A stretch of DNA of 20,000 nucleotides from Psammoneis japonica (Eukaryota), in contig QPGO01000244.1 in assembly GCA_008632985.1 (NCBI GenBank), forward strand, positions 77,701-97,700, read 5' to 3'. Shown here piece after piece: positions 2,323 through 19,477 of this stretch. The notes under the pieces were generated by a model. That model was given only the letters and a program-made list of their open reading frames with translations, was not told where the DNA came from and ran no database searches. The number at the start of each line of letters is the position of its first letter. The stretch's first letter is position 1. A program made the position numbers and the translations under genes.

Positions 2323-2829
2323 TAGGTGGGACCTCGCACTACTGAACTGTGACATCGATAGTTTTTTGAATCGCGTCGTATGTCGCGCACGTACATTTCT
2401 ACGTGATTTTGGCGAAATTTTGTATGATTTTATAGTACAATTATCAGGCTATCCCTTGAACAACTTTTTATATTTTTTTCTTCTACGCCATTCTCGAGTG
2501 TCTTAAGAATGGCGTAGGGCAGGCGTATTATCCAAAACTTCGAGTACGAACAGGGACGGATAGATGTACTACAAACTTGGCCGTTTTTTTTATGTCGAAG
2601 ATAAATATATGCATTAACCACAGTACGAACTACAGAGCTCGCACGTAGAATTCTACGGGGCAAATGTCACAAACCAGGCCTGCGGGGAGCATTGACCACT
2701 TGTCTTTCTTTGTGGGTGTGGGTGTATGTGTGCCGTTGCATGCTGTATTGCCTGTACGTACGTAGGGCCCTACCGCCGGGGCCGGTATTGTGGCGGCTGA
2801 GTGGCGTGGCCACCGCACCGGTGACGCGG

Positions 2830-4666
2830 ATGACCGTTATATTTGATGTCTCATGCCATTTTTGGGGCTGTAGCGAGCACAGCGGTTTCAACGGTTTCAA
2901 CGCGCATTTCAGGGCGAACGGTGAAATGTGCTCATTACCCATTTCTCCTTCCCTCGCCGATTCATTTCATTGCACGTCGCACGTCTTCAAGTCTATTACG
3001 ATGGCACTCTTTGTCAATTGAAGATGTAACTCTACAGCATTATTGACACCCCTTTGTAACATACCATTTAGAGAAGACAGGTAAGTCAAAATTTGCCAAC
3101 TGTGTTAGTCAGCAGTTCCTTCTTCCCCGCCAACATCCCCACCCGACTCCTCAACATTGTTCTACAGTACAGTCTCTGTCTCGACAGCGAGGTTTGCCCT
3201 TTGCCGCCTTTTTGGCTTCCTTCCTCTCCATCGTCTCGCCTGAAAAATTCGTCTATCGATTATCTTTTATCTTGTCCCGAACGGAAGCTGATTCTGTCAC
3301 GACATTCCGGAAGAGCTCGGGGAGGAATTGGAGAATTCCAAGACGATTGCCATATTGCGTCGGCTCAGGAAATCAGCAGCTAGGCCTATTATCAGGAACG
3401 ATCGCACCGCGATCATCAAGCCAAGTTTGACGCTGAGATTGATGGACTTGGTGCATGATGTAGACCATTTAAGTGGCAAGAATAACGATTGGTTTCTCGA
3501 CAGGCTGAGCTGGAAGCCGAGCTGCACGATAATGACATGGAAGTTGCCCCGTTCAAGACGATTTGATGTTGACAGTCATGCGAGTGTTTTTCCGTGGCAG
3601 GACTGCACACGATAAAAAGCGATCATGGCATCATGTCTCTTTCAGCAGATGCTGCTGTACTTTGGTGGACCGTCTGCTTGCAAAGCAACGCTTGGCTGAG
3701 ACCCTCGCTCTCAGCCGTCAGCGACCACTGTTTGCTCTAGGAAATGTGCTTGGGAGCACTGCATGGCTACTTTAGGCACACAACTTGTTACTCTGGGCAT
3801 TGTGTAAGATTCAACTATAGCACTTGAGATGATTACCCACTACTGCACGTCGGTTGGTTCATGGCCTGCGTCGAATGGTAGGATTTGACCTAGTTTAGAA
3901 ATGATGGACCTTCCTAGCAAGAAATTTCCATTGCATCAACCTGTTAGAAATGCCCACACTATCAACATCTTAAATGTATAAGGCCAATCAAGTGAACTTA
4001 CCTGGATCATCGACCTGCTGTACAGTATCAGCCCGACGGTGCATTTCTCATCGACTAACAGAGAACAGCGGCTTGAGCTGATTTGAGCTCGGATGATCCC
4101 GACAGAATGCTTCCAATGCCATCACACCAAGTCTTTTAATAAGAATACTAAGACTGCGCTGCATTGTAGAGTCCATACTGGACTTTTCATCCACCCCTAC
4201 AGTCAAGCTCATTCGTCCCGTCATCGTGGCATGAATCTCGTCGTCAGGAGTGGCACGAATGATCGTGTGTTTTTCTCTCTAGGCTTCTACAGATGGAACA
4301 ATTTTGCACAGCATGATAGTAAGATACAATAGAGAGCTGAAACATGGGAGATACTGGGAGAGGCAAGTCAAAATACCATCAACAAGGCCACCGTCAGATC
4401 CATGACAACAAATCGACGAAAACTCGTTCCGACAATCCAGTACAAACCCCACGTAGAAATCTACGATGATTTCCACGAAAAAAGGCGCAACCGAGATTCC
4501 GTCCGCCATTGTCAACCATATCGATAACGACGACATCAAAACATCTTACACTAAGGGAAAAACGACATATGACCTCAATAATACCATGAACGACAACATA
4601 TCTCATTTTTTCCTCAGTGTCGGCAGTTTACATGAAGTAGAACCGGCTGTTGTCGATTCATGGTGA
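2830..4666 (+). pseudogene. Possible fragmented or multi-exon gene of unknown function
   Basis: Normal TA content. ATG at 2830 lies ~60 bp after a TAGGGCCCTAC motif. Candidate introns at 2921-2990 (GT..AG) and from 3081 (AG|GTAAGT). Several short protein-like + frames (e.g. RQAELEAELHDNDME), but no continuous ORF or family recognised. Confidence 0.2.
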
Positions 4667-5326
4667 CTGCGGCTCTGAGCAACAAATTTTTTTTGTGCGG
4701 TGACAGTGTGCTTTTTTCAAAACTTTGAAGATTAAAAAGTTCCTAATTCCAGTTTGATTTGGCACACCCGAACATTTTTTTCACAGACAAACACGCTCAC
4801 CGTTCTCGCGCGGAAACCGCTGTGGCGAGGTGCACGGACACTCTTTTTTTTCCAATTTATCGCCATAATAGCGCATCGCACAAACTCACTTATTGTTCGA
4901 CATGTTTTCCCCAATATGACTTTTTCGTGTAGAATTCACGATAAATTATCTTTGTATATAACTGAATACATTTTTGAACATGCCACGCCGGCAATCCCAA
5001 TTTTTCAGAACTTTCGAGCTCTCCTGAAAAACCGTGCCACGTGCCCGTCGTAGGGAATTTATCGATTTTTTAGGATGTCCCCACAACCTCTCATGTCCTC
5101 AATGACAATTCCAAGAATCCGAAGAATTCATCTGCACTGAACAACCCACACCCTTTCAAAATCCAAGGGACACACTTTCAAATTCAGACGGACAACCCGA
5201 CTGCCCGACTGCCCCACTGCCGGACCGACACGAAAAAGTCTGCAATCACCAACCACTGAGTGGTCAATGAAAGTCCCACCCAGGACTGGAACCCGTCGCA
5301 AGAAAAGTCGATGAGCTGTCTCCAAC

Positions 5327-5499
5327 GATGTGAGAAAAGTCGATGAACTGTCCAAGCAAGGACCCCAAATTTTTTTTTGCTTCAAATGCCAAATGTCCCA
5401 AGTTGAGCAAAATTTTTCCATGGGTTTTGTTGCAAGTCGTGGTTTGTCAATGGGATTTGGCATTGAGGGCATGTCTGCACGTTCGCGCAAACTTCCAAG
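5327..5499 (+). repeat. Third copy of the 437-722 repeat family (possible transposon subterminal sequence)
   Basis: gatgtgagaaaagtcgatgaactgtcca is identical to 437-464, and 5391-5499 aligns with 478-596 and 602-722. Confidence 0.8.
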
Positions 5500-5739
5500 G
5501 TGTCAGTCAACATTGCTGACCTCTGCATGTGTGCTCTTTTTTCCTCATGTGCAAACCTGTGTGAGCCAATTGCCAGAAAGAACAACACATCTTGGTGCAC
5601 CCAGCCCAAAGCCTGTCTCAAGCTGCACCTTGTTTTGTCTCTCAGCTCTTCATTGTCTGGGTGGATCTCTCACACGCGGCATCACCTTGTGCCAAATCTT
5701 TGACCTCGCTGGCTTCAGAGACCCTTGCACACACTGCCC

Positions 5740-6223
5740 CAGCTTGGCAATGGCATCCTGACATTCTGCCAGCTCGGCAATGGCATCTGGCAATCCGACA
5801 TGGTGTTCTCGAGAGTCCGAACATGGTCTGCCAGTTTGGCGATGGCATCCTGACATTCTGCCAGCTTGGCAATGGCATCCTGATGATCCAACATGGTGTT
5901 CTTGAGAGTCCAAACTTGGTCTGCCAGCTTGGCAATGGCACCCTGACAATCCGACACGGTGTTCTCAAGAGTCTGAAAGTGGTGTGCCAGCTCAGCAACA
6001 GCATCCTGATGTTCCACCAGCTCGGCAATGGCATCCTGACGTTCTGCCATGGTGTTCTTGAGAGTCTGAAAGCAGTTTGCTGGCTCAGCAATGGCATCCT
6101 GACATTCCACCAGCTTGGCAATGGCACCCTGACATTCTGCCATGGTGTTCTTGAGAGTTCAAATGTGGTTTGCCAGCTTGGCAATGGCATCCTGACATTT
6201 CACCAGCCCGGCAACAGCACCCT
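5740..6223 (-). repeat. Coding-type minisatellite of mixed 30-bp and 63-bp units; relic of a coiled-coil protein
   Basis: Units start at 5740, 5770, 5832, 5862, 5925, 5988, 6018, 6081, 6111, 6174 and 6204 with core cagcttggcaatggcatcctga. The minus strand reads (AExQDAIAEL / ADxVRTLENTM)n. One 1-bp deletion near 5788. Confidence 0.85.
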
Positions 6224-6654
6224 CAACAGTTTCGTTGGATTTCTTGAGTTCGCCAGTGGATGCCGCCAAGCAGCGCTGCCTCCTTTCCCTTGCACGCTGA
6301 TTTTCTGATGAATTGCAAGGGGAGTGCTGGTGTGCTTGATGATGCCAATGCGATGCCTGCTGCCACGTTGTTGCTTTCCCCAGTGAGCGAAAGGCAACAA
6401 CAACACACAGTCATCACAACGGCTGCAACGCGGTCAGTGGCAAGGTGGCGCTCATGCTCAAATCTTGCCTGGTGTTGTTTGTGGCCGGCCTGTGATTGTT
6501 CCAGTGGCTGAGCCTCCTCCATGTGGCACCGCAACAACCAAGCACTGCACACGACTGCTCAAGCATGACTGTGCAGCATGAGCCGTGTTTTCAGTCTGTC
6601 ATGGTTGCCTGTGTTGGCTTGCCTCCATCACATCACATGATGACAGCCGAGTGC

Positions 6655-7276
6655 TGCACGTCTTGTGCTCTCATTTTGTTGTTGCTGCCAGACCTGCATG
6701 CTGCTTGCAAGCAGCCATGGCTGCAAACAACAACAGTGGCTGCAGGATGCACAGGTGGAATGAAGGTGATGATGCCGGGGAACTTTTGGGCCATGTGCAC
6801 AACCCTCGCAGCCCTGACATGATGTTCGCTCATGGAAATTGTCTCGCCAGAACACGTGGACAGAGCCCAGAATCTGAGCGGAAACTGGAGGTTGGTGTGC
6901 ACCACCATGTTCCACAAACACTGCAAGAGCATTGTGAAGCCAATCTTCCAGGCCGCGCCTCCTCCTGTGCCCACCGCCCACCCTCCCTCCTCTTGCAAAC
7001 CCACCTCGCAACACCACTGGGGTCATCCTCCACCTGGGCATCACTGTCCTCAATGCTCAAGGTGGTCAAGTTGAGCAATGCCAGCATTTTGCTTCATCAG
7101 CTCCACACAGGTTCTGACCCTCTTTTGTTGTTTTCTCTTGGGCCCAGATTTGGCTGGCATTGTCACAGCCACAGCACAAGGCCAGGTGACAGCCAGCTGG
7201 CAGCATCCTCTGAGATTTTTTGTTGTGGGACAATGCACGTCTTGTGCTCTCATTTTGCCATTGCTTCCAGACCTGC
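6655..7276 (+). repeat. 43-bp direct repeat pair (6655-6697 and 7234-7276)
   Basis: tgcacgtcttgtgctctcattttg...ccagacctgc occurs twice with about 4 mismatches. Confidence 0.75.
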
Positions 7277-8067
7277 TGAGAAACGTGCCTGATGCTGCCA
7301 CCCTTTCTAAGAAATGCAATTTGGCTGCTGCAGCCCACTCAGTGAACAGACACATGTGTGCGCGGCTGGCTGTTTCAATGTTGGATGCCCTGCCACTGCT
7401 CCATGTTGAAGCACATTGCTGGACACTTCCATGGCAACAAGCACTGGGGCATCACCTGCAAGAAACCTGGCCAAGACAACCCCAAGTTGCCCGCCTTCCC
7501 CAAAATGATGATCCCTTCCAGCTTTGCCAGCTGTTTTGGTTGGGTTGGCCAGTCGTGTGTCGTCTGCATCAACCATGATGTAAAATCAAGAGTTCAGACC
7601 AAAGTTGTTGCAGTGGCCTTGAGTGTGTTGGAAAGCACCTCAGATTTCTTTGAGAAGCAAGCCAGTGCCAATGATGCTGACCACACCAAAGTCCAGAGAC
7701 TTGGTGCAGAGCCAAAGCAATCTGGTGCAGCATCACATTCTCCAGCTGCACCCGCATGGAGAGGTTCTGATCCACCAAAGCACACAAGGGACACACCATT
7801 GTTGCTGGAAGCATTGATGGATGGATTGCCCAGCCCAAGTCAGAGAAAATGGTGGCTTTTCCTCCTCCAAGCCAGAGTGAGAATGGACTCTCCCAAGAAT
7901 GGAAAGCCTGATCTGCCAAAGCATGCAAGGATCATGCCATTGAAACCATCACTGCATGGATCACTCAAGTTGGAGATCCTTCCAGCCAGAGTGAGCATGG
8001 GCTCTCTGGTCCTGATGATTCTGAGAATGGCAGTGGCAAGATGCCAGCCAAAGATCCGGGTCAGAAA

Positions 8068-8212
8068 CCCAAGGTGAATGTCCAATTTTCCAAGCGGTGT
8101 TTTTGCAGCAGTGTTGTCAAATGCATGATGAAGAACACAGAAACTGGATCACCCATGTTTGGCATTGAATGTGAAGATGGCAACACTGAAGACATCAATC
8201 AAGAGGAGTGTG
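8068..8212 (+). pseudogene. Relic of a Tudor-like domain
   Basis: KVNVQFSKRCFCSSVVKC...PMFGIECEDGNTEDINQEE resembles the G-x-V-x-x-Y...(Y/F)-x-I-x-YEDGDxED pattern once C->Y and N->D are restored. Recognised by eye only. Confidence 0.45.
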
Positions 8213-9554
8213 CATCTAAACACTCAACAAGGAGCTTCCTTCAAAAGCTCATTTCACTCAAAATGTCAACATCCACAACTTGCCATTGGCCACTGAAAAT
8301 GTTGCTGAGACACAAACCACAGATTCTGTGACTGGCAAACCACCCACAAAACAATTGGAAGAGCCACGCGGCAATGAGATCTTTTGACACTTCAGAAGCA
8401 GCTTCGCTGTCTGAATTCTAAAAAAACATCCAAATTCCAAACCCCTCCCCACTGATTTCATTCACATCCATTTGCCATGACATGGCTGGCCACACATGGC
8501 ACAAATTTTAAGTTCATCATCCCCATTTTCACTGGAACAAAGCGCACACTGCCAGCCTTGCCACTTGGGGCAATGTGCTGACAATGGGGCTCACCACAAG
8601 TGTCCTGCAGAGATCTTCCTTGAAGTCACGCTGGGGGTGAGCCTGGGGTGAGCAGTCATTGGCTCCCCTGGCTGCAGCAACTGCTGTGAGAGTCTCACAG
8701 CTCCAGCTGAATGTTGCAGCATGGGTGATGCTTGGGTGTGGTGAAGGGTTTGAAGAAATGGGCACCACTTCAGCAACAGAGACTGCACCTCCATCCACAT
8801 GCAATTGAGGTGTCTCACTTTATGGCATGACATCTCAATGGCACTTTCACCAACTTTCACCCATTTTCCCATTTCTTGCTTTGTTCTTCTTGGTGACAAT
8901 TTTGCAATGCACACGCTGTTTTCTTCAAAGTCAGCACACGTTCAAGCTGAGATTGCAAATTTCACATTCAACACACACAACACCCAGTTGCCATTTCGGA
9001 AACTCTGGATCAACAGGAATGTTGCTGTTGTTTGGCAATGGCTCTGACAGCACACCAAACATCACATGCTTTGTAATGGGTTTGCATTGTTGCCACCCAG
9101 CAGTGCAGGATGCTTGGCTTCAGCACTGTGTCACACTCACAGTGGCTGTCTCAATCTGGCCTGTGCTTCTGAGAGGCAAGAAGAAAAGCAAAATGAGTGA
9201 GTGAGCAAGATTTCACTCTTTGGATGTGACCACAAACAATGCCAGAAGGTTGGACAGATGATGGGCAAACAAGAGCACCAAGTCAGCCTGAGTGAGAAGG
9301 CCCCATTTGTGGTCACCAGAGAGGATCTTCTTGCAGACCTCGCTGTTGTTTTTTGGCACTTGAAAGTTGGGCACTCTGTGGCCTGCAATGACGGGCACTC
9401 AAGAGATGCCCACAGCTCTGCAAAATGGAAGCACAGCAATGGAGGCAGAGCTCAGAGAAATGTGCAGGTCAGCCATGTGAAGTTGCCAACATGCAGACAC
9501 ACATGGGACCCTTTTCCTTTGCCCTTTGAACCAGGAGCTGCTTTTCAGTGCCTT

Positions 9555-10690
9555 TCACACATCACTTGGGTGAGAGTCAGAAAGAGCTGCCAGGTTCTGC
9601 AGCTTCTTGGACACCCAGATGATGGGACATCTGACATGACAAATGACATGTCCGATGCATGGCTTGATGGACGTTGGGTCCTGCCTGTCTTCAGCACAGA
9701 AGAGTCCCACAAAATCAGCACCAACACAGCTGTCCAGATGACGGTCAGTGGTGGGTGCAAGGATGAGCCCCTTGTTGGTGGCACCCTTCAAGTGACAAAG
9801 AGTGTGTTTGATGGCAACAGTGTGCAAGGCTTTGGGAGCACAGGAGAACTGCACAATTTGATGGACAGTGGACAGGCAGTGTTTGGGTGGCTGTCAGATG
9901 CTGGGTGCATCAGCGTGCCGACCACGGGGCAACAGTTGCAGGGTTCATCCAATGGCAGGCCTTCAGCAAAGTTGCCACCAACAGGTGTGGGAAGTGCAGG
10001 AGCAGGAGCTCCATTGCAGTTTTCCACATCTTGGTGGCACGCAGAACTTTCTCAGTTGGGCCAGGCCAGGTCAAGAAGGAAGAGCCAGCCACTCTTGAGC
10101 TTCTGGATCTTGATGCCCAAAAAGTCACCAACTTTGTGCCTTCACCACACAGGTCAAAGACATGGCATTGCTCGCCATCAGAGATGCCCAATTTGGCAAT
10201 GTGTCTCTGTTTGCTTCAAGTTCTTGAGCAGGTGCACCGGCAAACACGGCATCATCAACGTGCACCACACATGGCACACCCTTCTTTTGAAATGAAGACA
10301 AGAGTCAACAGCAGACTGGGACCAATCTCTTTCGAGTGATCCATCATGCAGCTTTCCACAGAAACACTTGGGAGGCTGATCATGAAGGCCACACAGGCCT
10401 TTCAACAGTTTCAGCACCAAATCGGCGACCGATCTTCTTGGCTGAGAACCCTTGGAAAGCTCCACACAGACTTTGTCCTTGGTGTCAGCTTGGTGCTGGG
10501 GATGCAACCATTTGCACAGATGACACAAAAGGAGGGGGGTGCCTCTCTCGAGGTTGTGCAACGCAGTGCAGAGGGTGACAACCGCACAGCAGGGGACAAT
10601 GAGACATGCCAAAAATGCAAATTGTGAGATGCTCTCTCACTTGTGCAAGAGTGACAATTTCGACCAACGGTCGCCAACGTCACTCCGACC
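9555..10690 (-). mobile_element. Degenerate Ty1/copia LTR-retrotransposon pol fragment (RT plus N-terminal RNase H), CoDi-like
   Basis: Motifs occur in copia order across frameshifts: LKLLKGLCGL (=LxKSLYGL), QSAVDSCLH, VHVDD at 10251-10265 (=YVDD), NCCPVVGTLMHPASDSHPNTAC (=YRSVVGMLMYLAxNSRPDIAY), KHTLCHLKG (=KRIxRYLKG), CVGADFVGL (=YVDADFAGL), GHVI..CPIIWVSK.LQ..AALS. No LTRs found. Confidence 0.9.
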
Positions 10691-10849
10691 ACTGTGCTGT
10701 TGCCGCAAGACTCGACGGACGTTTTTGCGGAAGCAAATCTGTCGTGACAACATGTCGATGACCCAAGGAGTCCACCGCCATCCGTGAACCAGCAGACTGG
10801 TGACTAGTGGCAGCTTGGCTCTTGTGGCTTGGGGCCGGCGCCGGCATCT

Positions 10850-11480: not shown

Positions 11481-12350
11481 CTATTCATCAGCCACAGAAC
11501 GAGGAGATACCTTCCACGACCCTGCTCGTTCGACCAATCTTCTTGAGGATTTCGAGCTTGAAGCTGTGTGTGCCGCATGGCAATTGGATCCAGGTTGCCC
11601 GGGTCTAGCAGTCTGTAACCGCTTTTGGACAAACAGGAATTCTGGAGAAGCTAATTGAATGCCGGAAGCATCCGATGCCACGCCCAGAAAGTATCCTTTG
11701 ACAGAATTGGACAGTTTATCGCTTGACTCAAGCGCATTCGATACGCACGCCAAAGCAACAATGGAGGAACTGATGGCAACGAGATGTTTGTCACTCAATG
11801 CCAATTCTATCTGATCCTCTGAGCACTTGAAGATGCTCTCACGCACTTGCTCTGTCATGGAGGATGACACCATCATGGTCAAATAGTTTCGGACAAATGC
11901 TGCTGGTGTTGGTGGATTCAATCGAAAACCCAGAGCTGAAATGATGACAACTTCCATATCAGTAATTTGCTTCTCGGTGTATGCACCTCTTGAGAGTCCA
12001 GCGACAGTCTTTGGGTCAATGGCCATGGGCTCGTGCATTTTGATGGCAGTGTAGAAACACGTCATGGCAGCAAGCTGATAAGTCACTCGCTGTTTGCACA
12101 TTTCTTGACCAGAAGGCGTAAGAAGAAAACGATCGAGATAAGATGTCGCTATTGACACGGTTTCTCGGTTGAACTTGCAAAAATCAGCGATTTGGTAAAA
12201 CCACTTGATAAGTTTCGCCCTGGAGCTAGCGTCGACTTGAGCAAATCGTGATGGCGGGTTCTCTGGAAGATCACAATGGCATCGATATGCCGTTTGCTCT
12301 TGAGTCCGCATGGCTCGGACTGTAAAGACAATGTCGTCGATATCCATCAT
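11481..12350 (-). CDS. Cyclin, diatom-specific type (Cyclin_N + Cyclin_C), ~289 aa
   Basis: Cyclin box RAKLIKWFYQIADFCKFNRETVSIATSYLDRF...YQLAAMTCFYTAIKMHE...MEVVIISALGFRLNPPT, with C-terminal SPRSV. Start placed at MMDIDD (12350) because the upstream 61 codons look non-coding. Confidence 0.93.
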   Translation of the reverse strand: MMDIDDIVFTVRAMRTQEQTAYRCHCDLPENPPSRFAQVDASSRAKLIKWFYQIADFCKFNRETVSIATSYLDRFLLTPSGQEMCKQRVTYQLAAMTCFYTAIKMHEPMAIDPKTVAGLSRGAYTEKQITDMEVVIISALGFRLNPPTPAAFVRNYLTMMVSSSMTEQVRESIFKCSEDQIELALSDKHLVAISSSIVALACVSNALESSDKLSNSVKGYFLGVASDASGIQLASPEFLFVQKRLQTARPGQPGSNCHAAHTASSSKSSRRLVERAGSWKVSPRSVADE

Positions 12351-13031
12351 ATTGAAAAGAAAGTGAACGATTGTGATTGAAAGTGGCTGTGTCGTAATTT
12401 GGGCAAAGGAAGTTTTTATGAGGTTGTGTCGTCGTTTGGTGCAAGCATTTCTCGAAGTCGCGGTTCTGTGGCGCAAGCAGTTTTCTACCCGCGACTCAAT
12501 ATCAAAATCGCGACTCGACTCGATCCGCGCCATCTAGTACATGATCCATGTAGAATGTACAGTACGTACGACCCCTACATGCTGTAGGTTGACATCTTCG
12601 CTCAGAGTACATACAGTGCTGAGACTGTGAACACTTGGGCATGTCTACCGGTAGAAGGTACCGCAGTACCGTATTATGTACGAAGTACCTTACTTCTTGT
12701 ACTAAAGCCTAACCAACCTTACTGCGTACGGTACATAGGGCCCTACAGCTTTCGGTGTCGTTTGCTCTTGTTTTTGGTCGCGGCGTGACATGCCTTCCCG
12801 CGCGACTGCGTGCGCCCTGCATGCATTCTCGCCGCAAGGCGAAGAAGGATGCCACACATTTTTTCTGAAAATCCAAATTCCAAATTCTGTTGAAGCTTGG
12901 CCAACGTACGGATGACGTCGGGGGTCTGAGGTCGGTGCGGTGTCAACTCTAGGGCCCTACGGTACTGTAGCGCAGCGCACACAAAAAGTCAGTGACACTA
13001 ACTGACAACTGACAACTGTGACGATTTGACG
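12351..13031. promoter_or_regulatory. Divergent intergenic/promoter region between cyclin and ACS
   Basis: The two genes are head-to-head. The region contains 12 GTAC in 12537-12734 and TAGGGCCCTAC at 12736 and 12950. Confidence 0.6.
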
Positions 13032-15144
13032 ATGAAGTTTTCGTCGAGTGCGCTGCTGTTGCTCTTGTGCAAGTCAGCAGTGATCCAGTCCTTTGCTCCG
13101 CCTCAGCCAACGTTTGGTCGTGGTAGACTTGTTCTTCATGCCGCCACAAACGGTGAAACTGCGGTCAAGCAAGAAGCATCAAAAACAGAGGAAGAAGAGC
13201 CTCACTTTGCCGAGAAGCAGTACGATGCTGTAACCAATTCGGCCTTTGAAAAATACAAGAAAGAATATGAGGAATCGATCAAGGATCCCTCTAAGTTTTG
13301 GTCTCAGCAAGCTGAAGATATGTTGGACTGGCAACAGCCTTTTCACGCAGCTTTGCAGGGATCACTTGAAGACGGATCTGTCACGTGGTTTGCTGGAGGA
13401 AAGCTCAATGTCTGTTACAATGCCATTGATCGTCACGTGGAAACTGGAAATGACGTTGCTCTGGTTTGGGAAGGGGATGAGCCAAGCGACACCAAGTCGT
13501 ACACTTATAAGGAACTCTTGGCAAAGACGTCTCAAATTGCCAACGCACTAAAATCGCAAGGTGTCAGGCGAGGAGATGTGGTCACGATTTACATGCCAAT
13601 GATACCTGAGTTAGCCATGACGATGCTAGCATGTGCAAGAATCGGTGCTGTTCACTCTGTTGTGTTTGCAGGATTCTCGTCCGAAGCCTTGGCGCAGCGC
13701 ATTGCCGCGGCACAGTCAAAATTCGTGGTGACAGCGGATGTCGGAAAACGTGGGGGTAAGACTATCGCGCTGAAAGATATTGTGAATGACAGTTTAGATC
13801 TCCAAGACTGCGACGCTGTTGTGGAAAAGGTGTTTGTCTTCGAACGCTTTCATGATCCAGAATCGACAGAGGCGACTTTTGAAATGAAAGACAAGGATGT
13901 CCGAATGGATCCACTCGTCAGAAGACAACGGCCGTACTGCGTTCCAGAAACAATGGACGCCGAAGACGACTTGTTTATTCTTTACACTTCCGGCAGTACG
14001 GGCATGCCAAAGGGCTTGGTCCACACGACCGGTGGGTATGCTCTCTATGCTGCATTTACCACAAAGAATACCTTTAACTTGGCGAAAGATGATCTGTTTG
14101 CATGTGTGGCCGATTGTGGTTGGATTACAGGACACACCTACGTTGTCTATGGTGCGCTTTTGAACGGCGGCACTACCTTTATGTTTGAGTCAACACCTGT
14201 CTATCCGATCCTGGCAGGTATTGGGACATGGTGGAGCGACACGGGATCACATTATCTACACCGCACCTACAGCGATTCGTCTTTTGATGCGGTATGAGAT
14301 GAATATCCGAAAAAATATGATTTATCGAGTCTCAAGGTTTTAGGAAGTGTCGGAGAGCCTATCAACCCAGAAGCATGGCGCTGGTACTTTGAGACAATTG
14401 GTCGCTCTCAATGTAGCGTGGTTGATACCTATTGGCAAACGGAGACTGGCGGCCATATAATTACAAACTTTCCCGGAGTAACGCCCATGAAACCGGGAAG
14501 TTGTACATTGCCGTCATATGGAATCGATGCGGTAGTGTTGGACCCTCTTGATGGACACGTGTTGGAGGGCAGTCCGCAGGAGGGTGTCTTGGCAATTCGT
14601 CAGCCATGGCCGGGTATGGCCCGAACGTGTCTAGGCGATCACGAGCGGTACATGCAGGTGTACACAAAGCCTTATCCAGGCTTCTACTTTACAGGCGACT
14701 CCGTGATTCGAGATCAAGATGGATACCATTTTATTACCGGGCGTGTCGATGATGTATGAACGTGAGCGGTCATCGGATTGGCACCGCCGAAGTAGAAAGC
14801 GCCTCGTCGGTCACTCAGGAGTGGCGCAAGCAGCTGTCGTTGGACAGCCCCATCCTATCAAGGGGCAATCGATTGTTGCCTTTGTCATGTTGGATGTTAA
14901 ACATGAGGAGAGTGACTCTCTTGTGAAGGAACTGCGCAATCAAGTACGGACCGACATTGGGCCGTTCGCATCTCCTGACGTCATTTGTGTTGCTCCTTCA
15001 CTCCCAATGACCCGTAGTGGAAAAATTATGAGACGTATCCTTCGCAAAATTGTTGCCGGGGAAACGGATACATTAGGTGATACGAGTACTCTTGCGGATC
15101 CATCAATTGTCGACGTTCTCATTGACAAAGTTGAAAGCTGGTAG
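13032..15144 (+). CDS. ACS: Acetyl-CoA synthetase (AMP-forming), predicted plastid-targeted; five 1-bp frameshifts in this sequence
   Basis: Motifs [92 protein letters not shown] and [11 protein letters not shown]. The N-terminus is a signal peptide followed by S-FAP. Frame breaks at about 14206, 14255, 14296, 14755 and 14803. Confidence 0.93.
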
Positions 15145-16944: not shown

Positions 16945-17290
16945 GTAGCTCGCTCTACTAGTAGGCTCGGCTACTCTAGAGAGCTAGAGTGGCTATGGCT
17001 CTACAGCAGCTACTCTAGAGTCTACCGTTGGCTACCGTAGCTGCTTAGAGAGCTGGCCACAAGAGCTGGCTCTGCTCTAGAGCCAAGCCACTGGAGCTAG
17101 CTCTGCTCTAGAGCTAAGCTGCTAGAGCCAGCTCTGCTCTGGAGCTAAGCTGCTAGAGCTGGCTCTGCTCTAGAGCTAAGCCACTAGAGCTAGCTCTACT
17201 CTCTAGCTAGAGAGCACCGGTAGAGTAGAGCATAGCTACTCTCTCTAGAGCTGAGAGTTAGAGAGAGGGCCCTAAGCTAGCTAGCTCGAG
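16945..17290. repeat. CTAG/AGAG-rich low-complexity tract containing a 31-bp tandem array (17062-17202, 4.5 units)
   Basis: Units at 17062, 17093, 17124, 17155 and 17186. Inferred consensus agagctagctctactctagagctaagctact, with internal palindromes agagctagctct and ctctagag. Confidence 0.9.
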
Positions 17291-17593: not shown

Positions 17594-19477
17594 ATGGCAT
17601 CGGGAGGAACGCATCGCAAAGCGCGAAAAGCGGGTGGAGTGAACGTTGAGGCGGTACATCCTTTCGAACCGAAGCCGTCCAATCCTTCGTCTCTCCCAAG
17701 GAAAATGATGTCTTGTGTGGAAGAGGCGTGCATGCCAGCCAGCATGGCGGCAATGTCTACATTTGGCAGCTGGTGAAGCAACGACAAGAGGAATACACAT
17801 TGCACGCACCCAAAGCTCGCAAACAAGAGATTTCTCGTGAAATCGTACAGCAGATACACAGTCTCTCTCCTCCAGGAAGATTCATGAGAAAGAATGAGAG
17901 GCTAAATGTTTGGATGGAGGTGTCTGACGAGGAGGCGCGAAAGAAAGTCAGTCAATGCCTTCGTGAGAAGAAAGGGAGCGAGCCGCCCAATTTTTCGTAT
18001 CTCCCAAGGAAGAATGATGTCTTGAGTGGAAGAGGCTCGGGTCCCAACCAGCATGACGGCAATGTCTACCTTCGGCAGCTGGTGAAGCAGCGACAAGAGG
18101 AATACACATTCCACGCATCCAAAGCCCGCAAACAAGAGATTTCTCGTGAAATCGTACAGCAGATACACAGTCTCTCTCCTCCAGGAAGATTCATGAGAAA
18201 GAATGAGAGGCTGAATCTTTGGATGGAGGTGTCTCATGAGGAGGCGCGAAAGAAAGTCAGTCAATGCCTTCGTGAGAAGAAAGAGGGCAAAAGCAAATGT
18301 TCGCAGGATCTTTCTTTTAACGACTCGGCAGAATTACTCCAGTTTCAACCGAGCACACAAGCTGTTCGCTCGCTCATTGACCATCGTCCGTCGCAATCGC
18401 CCCTATGCTGGAGCTACAACGCAAGCTCGACCATCTCTTCGGCAAGAGAACCGACGCAGCAAGAAACACGCACAAGCTGAAGAGGTACCGACCCTGGCAA
18501 ATGAAGTAGAAGACCGTAAAACTCTTCCTGTCAAGAAAAGGAGGCCTACGCTACAAATGCCGGAAAATTGTGACATTATTGATGTTGACGCTGAGCCGGA
18601 AGCACCATGGCACGCTCACCTTTCACAATACCCTTGGTTGACAAAAACTGGCTCAGTCAATACCAACTAGAAGATGATAAAGAGGTTGGCGCCGACGAAC
18701 CGCATGCGCCATGGGACGCTCACCTTTCACAATACCCCATGGTTGACAAATATCGGGTTAGTCAATACCAATTAGGTGATGAAGAGGTTGACGCCGAGGA
18801 GCCGAAAGCACCATGGGACGCTCACCTTTCACAATACCCCATGGTTGACGAGAATTGGATCAGTAGATACAAACTGGGTGACAAAGAGGAGCTTGGTGCC
18901 AGGGAATGCTCCCGGTAAGTGCATCAATCATCCTTTGAATTTCAGCACATGTGGTTTTTCTTATTCGCTCATCATCCGCCCTCCTGGTGCAACGGTGAAC
19001 AGAACGATACTCGAAGAAGTCGAGCCCTTCATACCACGCCCGGAGTCTACCGCGTCAAAAACCCCGACCAGCATACTGAAACACTCGAGTAAACCTTGCC
19101 GTGAAGGCTTTAGCAAGACCGCTCCTAGCTCCTTCGAAAGCTTTGCATCTTCTGCAATGAATACTCCACCTAAATCCTTAGAGGAAGATCATCACGTAGG
19201 TCAGATCAAGACTGCGCCTTGGTCCGCCGAATCGTCGGTGCCCGATTCATCAGAAGATGCTACTCTAGCTGTAATGAGGAACACGAAGCACGATCGCGGT
19301 GAGAATCAGCTCAAGCCTGCTCCAAAACCTTTGGAAAGATTAGCATCTGATACATCATATACTTCGCTCGTCGTACTGACACACTCCAAGCAAGATCGTG
19401 CTGCTAATGAACGCAAGCTCGCTCCTAGTCCATTGGAAAGGTTGGCGTCCATTGCATCAATTACTCACGAGCCGTAG
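17594..19477 (+). CDS. Protein with two tandem DUF6824-type domains, three ~35-aa repeats and an S/P-rich tail; frameshifted in this sequence
   Basis: NDVL(C/S)GRG...HxGN...LV...Y...KQEISREIVQQI...PPGRF...W.EV..EEARKKVSQCLRE occurs twice. Frame breaks at about 17703, 18465 and 18633. Frame-restoring GT-AG intron at 18915-18992. The true 3' end may extend to ~19700 through another frameshift. Confidence 0.75.
17693..18281 (+). repeat. Intragenic near-identical tandem duplication, period ~309 bp
   Basis: 17693-17972 and 18001-18281 align with long identical stretches, each encoding one DUF6824-type domain. Confidence 0.92.
18583..18890 (+). repeat. Three ~102-105-bp coding repeats (EPxAPWDAHLSQYPMVDxxxxSQYQLGD)
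   Basis: ccatgg(g/c)acgctcacctttcacaataccc occurs three times (~18605, 18709, 18811). Confidence 0.9.

Follow-up and report, generated by a model that had tools for sequence, protein, structure and literature searches.

Probable targeted TpA hypermutation in a diatom nuclear genome: two TpA-free blocks and an enclosed Ty1/copia relic

The stretch of DNA analyzed here (the window, 20,000 bases of contig QPGO01000244.1 from Psammoneis japonica assembly GCA_008632985.1, positions 77,701 to 97,700 of the forward strand) contains the relic of a Ty1/copia retrotransposon whose reverse transcriptase (RT) and RNase H region has lost every conserved tyrosine to histidine or cysteine. The relic lies within the larger of two blocks almost devoid of the dinucleotide TpA (TA), and relic and blocks together are probably the footprint of targeted TpA hypermutation in a diatom nuclear genome. 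The change runs from TA to CA or TG, is restricted to TA, affects both strands symmetrically, is nearly complete, ends at sharp limits and recurs in independent copia copies. An initial annotation, made from the sequence alone, had described the feature as confined to the relic; it instead covers a 5.7 kb block, within which the relic does lie, and a further block of 1.8 kb (Table 1).

A phmmer search with one read-through frame of the relic against 1.84 billion representative sequences (E <= 0.001) returned 755 copia polyprotein matches, the best at E 4e-17, and tblastn with 40 long relatives gave matches in the window confined to 9400-10500. From the 42 matches spanning most of the RT-RNase H region, a custom hidden Markov model (HMM) was built on 34 intact relatives, leaving out the tyrosine-less proteins P0078 and P0151 and the partial proteins P0010, P0017, P0018, P0035, P0127 and P0146. 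This profile recognizes the RNase H part of the relic at E 8.5e-31 and the RT part at E 5e-15; the relic thus shows the arrangement that marks membership of Ty1/copia, an RVT_2-type RT with a YVDD box, here reading HVDD, followed by RNase H. Pfam (E <= 0.01) matched nothing on the three relic frames, RVT_2 included. The minus-strand motifs in the interval are VVHVDDAVF, LKGLCGLH, LCHLKGAT, DSCVGADF, GHVICHVRCPIIW, NCC, TLMHPA and SHPNTAC. The relic is truncated at both ends and frameshifted, with four in-frame segments over two frames, in-frame TGA stops and no tyrosine codon. A whole-polyprotein HMM (45 sequences) run on the six frames of the window found no gag, protease or integrase and nothing outside 9585-10480, and no long terminal repeat (LTR) or long direct repeats flanking the relic were found; it is therefore a fragment and not a complete element. 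The copia identity proposed in the initial annotation is borne out by the custom HMM, but the interval of 9555-10690 given there is too wide, with homology limited to approximately 9576-10492.

Conservation among the relatives gives the direction of change, as the annotation had argued. Of 266 relic positions aligned to the profile, 131 fall in columns where one residue is present in at least 60% of the 34 relatives. Tyrosine is kept in none of the eight columns where it is conserved, and only Cys (four columns, all TGT) and His (four columns, CAC or CAT) stand in its place, compared with 74 of 123 other conserved residues kept (Fisher p 0.00096), among them Lys in 8/8, Gly in 10/12 and Phe in 4/5. 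Loss of tyrosine at no more than the rate of other conserved residues, or replacement by residues other than His and Cys, was not seen. The catalytic motif itself has been hit, the Tyr of the YVDD box having become His. Seven of the eight tyrosine replacements originally listed hold (codon starts at 10393, 10262, 9934, 9907, 9794, 9728 and 9650), and Tyr occupies the columns concerned in 68-97% of the relatives. DIAY to NTAC, the eighth, does not hold, since its column (365) is Phe in 26/34 and Tyr in 5/34 relatives and permits no safe tyrosine call. An additional conserved Tyr column, at 10468 (TGT), was absent from the list.

At the codon level, the 57 mismatches in conserved columns comprise 7 single TA>TG changes, 6 single TA>CA changes, 11 CpG-type changes, 13 other transitions, 10 transversions and 10 that require more than one step. 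The two TA outcomes are therefore balanced (7 versus 6), and the order of TG and CA along the relic displays no strand clustering (runs test z 0.31). All eight conserved Tyr columns read CAY or TGT, as expected if TAY became CAY or TGY; the proposed change of CTA to CCA is present at 9904, and a TTA to TCA change is found at 10339. The suggested ATA to ACA change did not hold, since the two Ile to Thr replacements at conserved columns are ACT codons outside a TA context. None of the five conserved Arg residues is kept (His 2, Cys 2, Gln 1), and all five losses are CpG-type, in agreement with the CpG decay suggested earlier; for the Asp to Asn replacements, the same explanation suits one of three and fails for the other two.

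The mutational changes were also reversed in silico, as the annotation had recommended, using a fixed alignment of 270 codons and strand-symmetric dinucleotide rules and comparing the bits regained against the custom profile with those regained at shuffled positions. Reverting CA and TG to TA gave the best fit, with a gain of 74.6 bits versus 48.0 +/- 7.0 for shuffled positions. Reverting TG and CA to CG gained 54.0 bits versus 45.8 +/- 6.8, and for each of six control contexts the gain was below that of its own shuffle.

The loss of TA extends well beyond the relic. In the flanks, TA has a frequency of 0.043 per dinucleotide, or a mean of one TA per 23 bases, and the longest runs without TA in the window measure 2237, 1804 and 1731 bases; at the flank frequency, TA-free runs of 1.7-2.2 kb exclude chance. 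The left edge of the large block is sharp, with TA at 5051, 5060 and 5071 and the next only at 7308, and so is the right edge, with no TA from 9074 to 10805 and then one every 5-50 bases. Block edges are thus sharp to within tens of bases, and normal diatom genes adjoin. Within the blocks, the observed-to-expected ratio (O/E) of TA is 0.00-0.03 and that of TG and CA is 1.6-1.9, while TC is not depleted (O/E ~0.94-0.97). The large block has a deficit of 239 TA and 210 CG, a sum of 449, against a TG plus CA excess of 446 (TG 609 versus CA 676); in the second block the TA and CG deficits come to 114 and the TG plus CA excess to 107. This near equality of deficit and excess indicates that TA was converted and not avoided. 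The seven TA dinucleotides present in the large block (7308, 7581, 8217, 8419, 8509, 8821 and 9074) all lie within 7308-9074, and A follows in six of them; later mutation could have restored them, or the mutator could work less well in their sequence context.

CpG decay is a separate, second process from TA loss. The CpG O/E is 0.43-0.51 in the blocks apart from the CpG-poor sub-block and the edge piece, and the limits of CpG loss differ from those of TA loss, as the edge piece combines normal CpG with zero TA. CpG decay accounts for about half of the TG plus CA excess.

Table 1. Positions of the TpA-free blocks, the copia relic and neighbouring features in the window.
Feature	Positions	Strand	Remarks
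Large TpA-free block	5072-10804	no strand	7 TA in 5733 bases; TG and CA O/E 1.7-1.9
Second TpA-free block	520-2322	no strand	0 TA in 1803 bases; CG O/E 0.51
CpG-poor sub-block	7001-10500	no strand	CG O/E 0.16
Edge piece	10501-10804	no strand	0 TA, CG O/E 0.82; beyond recognisable RT homology
Spacer separating the two blocks	2323-5071	no strand	TA O/E 0.66, CG O/E 1.02; normal composition
Ty1/copia RT-RNase H relic	~9576-10492	minus	Profile positions 173-462 of 578
CAC (His) codon replacing Tyr of the catalytic YVDD box	10260-10262	minus	Column 247, Tyr in 29/34 relatives
Cyclin	11481-12533	minus	Pfam; TA content and Tyr usage ordinary
Acetyl-CoA synthetase, intron-containing	13002-15144	plus, in pieces	Pfam; TA content and Tyr usage ordinary

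Apart from the relic, little in the blocks resembles known sequences. Pfam applied to 45 non-relic stop-to-stop open reading frames (ORFs), 37 of them in the blocks or the spacer, returned nothing beyond weak coiled-coil matches in 5715-6158 (minus strand); it found no recognisable protein homology in the second block and no family match in the spacer. The coiled-coil frame belongs to a tandem array at 5709-6290 within the large block, with spacings of 30, 63 and 93 bases. Two other repeats touch the block edges. A unit of ~120 bases occurs in three copies across them (476-596, 600-722 and 5392-5502), and at one aligned site the copies read TA, TG and CA, respectively, so that both outcomes are represented at the DNA level. 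A very high-copy dispersed repeat spans 4800-5441, where the summed contig depth in sequencing run X1 reaches ~8,000-10,000 versus ~55 for its neighbours; it is represented by hundreds of diverged contigs, many of them ending at 5270-5272.

Logan contigs of run X1 carry the large block at ~98.6% identity (68 other letters in 4861 bases, in seven pieces) and at single-copy depth save for short stretches. Since these contigs were assembled separately, the block is no assembler quirk. Runs X2 and X3 contain next to nothing of the stretch. Comparison of the window with X1 gave 188 differences, of which 40 were listed and correspond to 34 events: 18 single differences of CG versus TG or CA, 6 adjacent CA/TG doubles, 2 that involve TA and 8 others. 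The polymorphism of CG versus TG or CA between haplotypes shows that CpG decay is still going on.

Tyrosine-less copia proteins also occur elsewhere. Among the matches listed, 5 of 150 homologues (P0013, P0015, P0039, P0084 and P0078) contain 0-0.9% Tyr, and all five come from metagenome contigs. In 11 conserved Tyr columns these five proteins have His or Cys at 30/44 positions, compared with 31/660 for 112 other proteins not used in training, which have Tyr at 540/660. The most complete example, P0078, is an open gag-to-RNase H polyprotein of 2061 residues with a single Tyr; relatives in its group carry PF07727 and PF13976, and its named relatives are exclusively diatoms (Mayamaea, Cylindrotheca and Fragilaria). 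It shares 53% identity over 1732 residues with the intact P0077, yet none of the 55 Tyr residues of P0077 is kept (Cys 21, His 19, Phe 6), compared with 89% of Trp and 81% of Pro. Cys and His follow one another at random along the protein (runs test z -0.63).

The member of the same 90% cluster, P0151, differs from P0078 at 27 of 2061 residues. Thirteen of these differences are His/Cys swaps, each requiring two base changes, and P0077 has Tyr at 8 of the 13. The remainder consists largely of Glu/Lys, Ile/Val, Leu/Pro, Leu/Ser, Ala/Val and Ala/Thr pairs, interpretable as the two possible products of a single ancestral TA. Among the polarised Tyr sites, 32/40 share the same choice and 8/40 are discordant, which places part of the conversion after the split of P0078 and P0151, with little else changed since.

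A set of 79 metagenome copia loci was examined at the DNA level. These loci have Tyr at 55-100% of conserved columns, with His or Cys in at most 2 of up to 11 columns per locus. They were picked by likeness to intact proteins, using an alignment (A2) pattern that needs Tyr or Trp; an alternative alignment that included Tyr-less sequences (A3) was too variable to yield a pattern. A scan of viral contigs with A2 produced 25 pattern matches and no relative. Two further sequences deserve mention. One of 118 further relatives, P0303 (1352 aa), has 0.9% Tyr, 4.2% His and 2.9% Cys, versus family medians of 2.7, 3.3 and 1.5, and may be a partly hypermutated copy. The RT-RNase H locus L039:1-1776 has a TA O/E of 0.18 and a CG O/E of 0.10; in its longest ORF 6/9 TA belong to Tyr codons, the non-Tyr TA O/E is 0.07, and Tyr is kept at 7/11 conserved columns. 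This locus could reflect TA loss under selection, but low non-Tyr TA is common in host genes of the window. We considered whether intact copia lineages in general purge non-Tyr TA, as several loci have O/E values of 0.24-0.30, but host genes range from 0.29 to 0.9 and only L039 (0.07) stands out; the idea was dropped.

Under the hypermutation favoured here, TpA-specific transitions would turn essentially every 5'-TA-3' into TG or CA, on both strands equally, throughout a domain with sharp limits that consists of silent, non-genic DNA and encloses a copia fragment. Presumably the process acts in situ on integrated DNA and protects the host against DNA that is foreign or repeated, as demonstrated de novo in the chlorarachniophyte Bigelowiella natans; silent or foreign DNA would be marked for it. 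An ADAT2/TadA-like deaminase may convert adenine to hypoxanthine at 5'-TA on either strand; the following replication would fix hypoxanthine as G, and recurrence of this cycle from generation to generation would exhaust the targets. We put the adenine deaminase step forward only tentatively, at somewhat less than an even chance. Methylated CpG deamination forms a second, independent layer, having taken most CG in part of the domain, and is still polymorphic. In coding terms, every Tyr codon would become Cys or His, the catalytic YVDD box included, and TTA, CTA and GTA-type codons would change as well. Since TA>CA or TG creates no stop and erases TAA and TAG, long open frames with only TGA as stop fill the blocks. 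One such false ORF, of 364 codons, runs antisense to the relic at 9201-10295 on the plus strand.

The same footprint and targeting could arise by other chemistry, if a TET/JBP-type dioxygenase oxidised the thymine of TpA to 5-hydroxymethyl- or 5-formyl-uracil and thereby led to T>C on either strand. Oxidised thymine mispairs with G. Because TA reads the same on both strands, the pattern left by T>C is also that left by A>G. A dinoflagellate TET/JBP enzyme is described as making 5-hydroxymethyluracil (5hmU), with silencing of transposable elements, and older work cited in the same source has thymine replaced preferentially in TA and TC (PMC11572971). TC is not depleted in the blocks, however, and a later genome-wide map is reported to display no TA preference of 5hmU in Breviolum (PMC11071213). 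We regard thymine oxidation as unlikely, though it is the best of the alternatives.

A retrotransposition intermediate, either RNA or minus-strand cDNA, could instead have been edited in the manner of ADAR, ADAT or APOBEC enzymes and have integrated already mutated. The recognisable target is a retrotransposon, and the full-length open polyprotein of P0078 is what would be expected if mutation were fast relative to decay. Such editing predicts a one-strand bias, whereas the two outcomes are balanced in the relic and in P0078 (21 Cys versus 19 His), without strand runs. In addition, ~6.5 kb of the TpA-free domain, including the separate 1.8 kb block, has no copia homology. The 32 shared and 8 differing choices of P0078 and P0151 point to stepwise mutation of resident copies, and the process in B. 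natans is described as acting on integrated single-copy DNA (10.64898/2026.01.13.699255). Given the lack of strand bias and the non-copia nature of most of the block, editing of an intermediate fits poorly and is improbable, clearly more so than thymine oxidation.

We give almost no credence to the absence of any targeted process, that is, to neutral decay with CpG deamination, a native TA-poor composition (through selection or foreign origin) or an artefact of sequencing or assembly. CpG decay does occur and host genes also under-use non-Tyr TA (O/E 0.29-0.9), but 1.7-2.2 kb without TA is beyond drift or CpG decay at the flank frequency, and at conserved Tyr columns nothing but the two transition products is seen. 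The block edges are defined to within tens of bases, the separately assembled X1 contigs agree, and unrelated metagenome assemblies contain Tyr-less copia proteins, while the 112 proteins and 79 loci examined mostly keep Tyr and rarely have His or Cys.

It should be noted that several observations weigh against targeted TpA hypermutation of transposons by a deaminase. The TpA-free DNA amounts to 7.5 kb, of which only ~0.9 kb can be identified as transposon, and the remainder matched nothing, so that targeting of transposable elements is established for a fraction of this DNA only. The high-copy repeat at 4800-5441 retains TA until 5071 and lacks it in its right part, and repetition alone is hence no trigger. 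Run X1 may be the source sample of the assembly, in which case it is not independent. Only 2 of the 34 listed events between window and X1 involve TA, which gives no sign of activity since the haplotypes split; we had considered the six adjacent CA/TG doubles as independent hits on TA, but dropped this because most single differences are CpG-type and an ancestral CpG hit twice fits equally well. None of the 79 metagenome copia loci is hypermutated or TpA-free, in a set biased toward intact copies. Lastly, the self-complementarity of TA makes A>G on one strand indistinguishable from T>C on the other.

A broader scenario would have diatoms possess an active defence resembling fungal repeat-induced point (RIP) mutation but opposite in direction, shared with Bigelowiella, old within the stramenopile-alveolate-rhizarian (SAR) lineage and working now in natural populations; we see the chances of this as evenly divided. 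In such a shared defence, the TpA of marked transposon or foreign DNA would become TpG or CpA, probably by adenine deamination. Because no stop codons are made, full-length Tyr-less "ghost" polyproteins would result, and near-identical ghost copies that differ almost only at former TpA would mean that the mutator is active now. The saturated diatom case, together with Tyr-less copia whose named relatives are only diatoms, suggests a system common to many marine algae that acts on retrotransposons too. Since several diatoms are transformable, knock-outs would make it possible to test both the targeting signal and the enzyme, be it the candidate deaminase or a thymine oxidase. There are also consequences for annotation. 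With TGA as the only stop, TpA-free DNA yields long false ORFs; gene callers will make Tyr-less "proteins" from it, in all frames of 520-2322 and 5072-10804, and such "proteins" are already present in public collections, whereas standard Pfam models miss the mutated domains.

The gene content of the window, as identified by Pfam, is that of nuclear DNA from a diatom or close relative. In addition to the genes in Table 1, it includes a prefoldin gene and a duplicated DUF6824 gene. The closest named relatives of the acetyl-CoA synthetase are all diatoms (Grammatophora, Cylindrotheca, Nitzschia and Bacillariaceae), at 60-71% identity. Counted by codon phase, TA outside Tyr codons has an O/E of 0.29-0.9 in the host genes of the window. 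Several repeats lie at the far end: a 31-base AGCT-rich, self-complementary tandem array at 17005-17240, with 26 TA in 250 bases; a 308-base internal duplication, 92% identical, in the DUF6824 gene at 17673-18288; and, downstream, tandem repeats of ~102 bases at 18581-18900. An Rfam scan of the window gave no match.

Four known systems invite comparison. Methylation-dependent CpG deamination is itself present here as the second layer (CG O/E 0.16 in 7001-10500, 5/5 conserved Arg, polymorphism between haplotypes), but it is unable to remove TA, and its limits differ from those of TA loss. The animal APOBEC and ADAR enzymes likewise represent a deaminase-type inactivation of retroelements with a neighbour-base preference, and ADAR is reported to favour U before the edited A (10.64898/2026.01.13.699255). 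Their substrate is RNA or a single cDNA strand, which leaves a strand bias, whereas here both strands are affected equally and non-retroelement DNA is included. Fungal RIP is similar in being a DNA-level, strand-symmetric, dinucleotide-specific transition process that strikes selfish DNA within sharp limits and leaves adjoining genes intact. Its direction is the reverse, however: RIP turns CpA into TpA, so that TpA rises and stops appear, while here TpA is lost, GC rises and no stops are made. The signature of RIP, TpA excess with CpA and TpG depletion, is accordingly not found, with TA at 0 and CA and TG at 1.6-1.9. The block is moreover mostly single-copy in X1, and its high-copy neighbour is not fully affected.

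The closest counterpart is the TpA to TpG or CpA hypermutation of integrated viruses described in B. natans (Mettrop et al., bioRxiv 10.64898/2026.01.13.699255). According to that preprint, mutation-accumulation lines gained 231 new mutations in two viral regions integrated in the genome, and 230 of these are A>G or T>C, all at TpA, with a rate of ~6e-7 per site per generation in some lines only; reverse-transcriptase and DDE domains are over-represented in coding sequences low in TpA, and the authors propose an ADAT2-like candidate. The two cases agree in having transitions only, at TpA only, giving TpG or CpA according to strand, in local regions beside normal DNA, with long-term TpA depletion matched by CpA and TpG gain. 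The target in B. natans is foreign or selfish DNA, as is the identifiable ~0.9 kb of the 7.5 kb here. They differ in host (a rhizarian versus a diatom, which is a stramenopile), in target (a giant-virus or virophage insert versus an LTR retrotransposon relic) and in extent, with partial depletion in the region derived from a nucleocytoplasmic large DNA virus (Rho 0.45, 3.3% TpA left) versus saturation here (O/E 0.00-0.03). De novo mutations were observed there, whereas the footprint here is fossil and overlain on CpG decay. Literature searches, including work on mutation accumulation, returned no report of TpA hypermutation in diatoms, and a term look-up in PMC2806351, PMC8147415 and 10.1101/2025.10.24.684338 yielded nothing on dinucleotide bias, deamination or hypermutation. 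The process is thus known from one preprint and one species; the diatom lineage, the retrotransposon target and the complete saturation are new here. By analogy, we take the block to represent the saturated end state of a B. natans-type process in a diatom, and the inactivation of transposable elements proposed for the relic in the initial annotation gains a concrete precedent in the TpA-specific hypermutation of B. natans.

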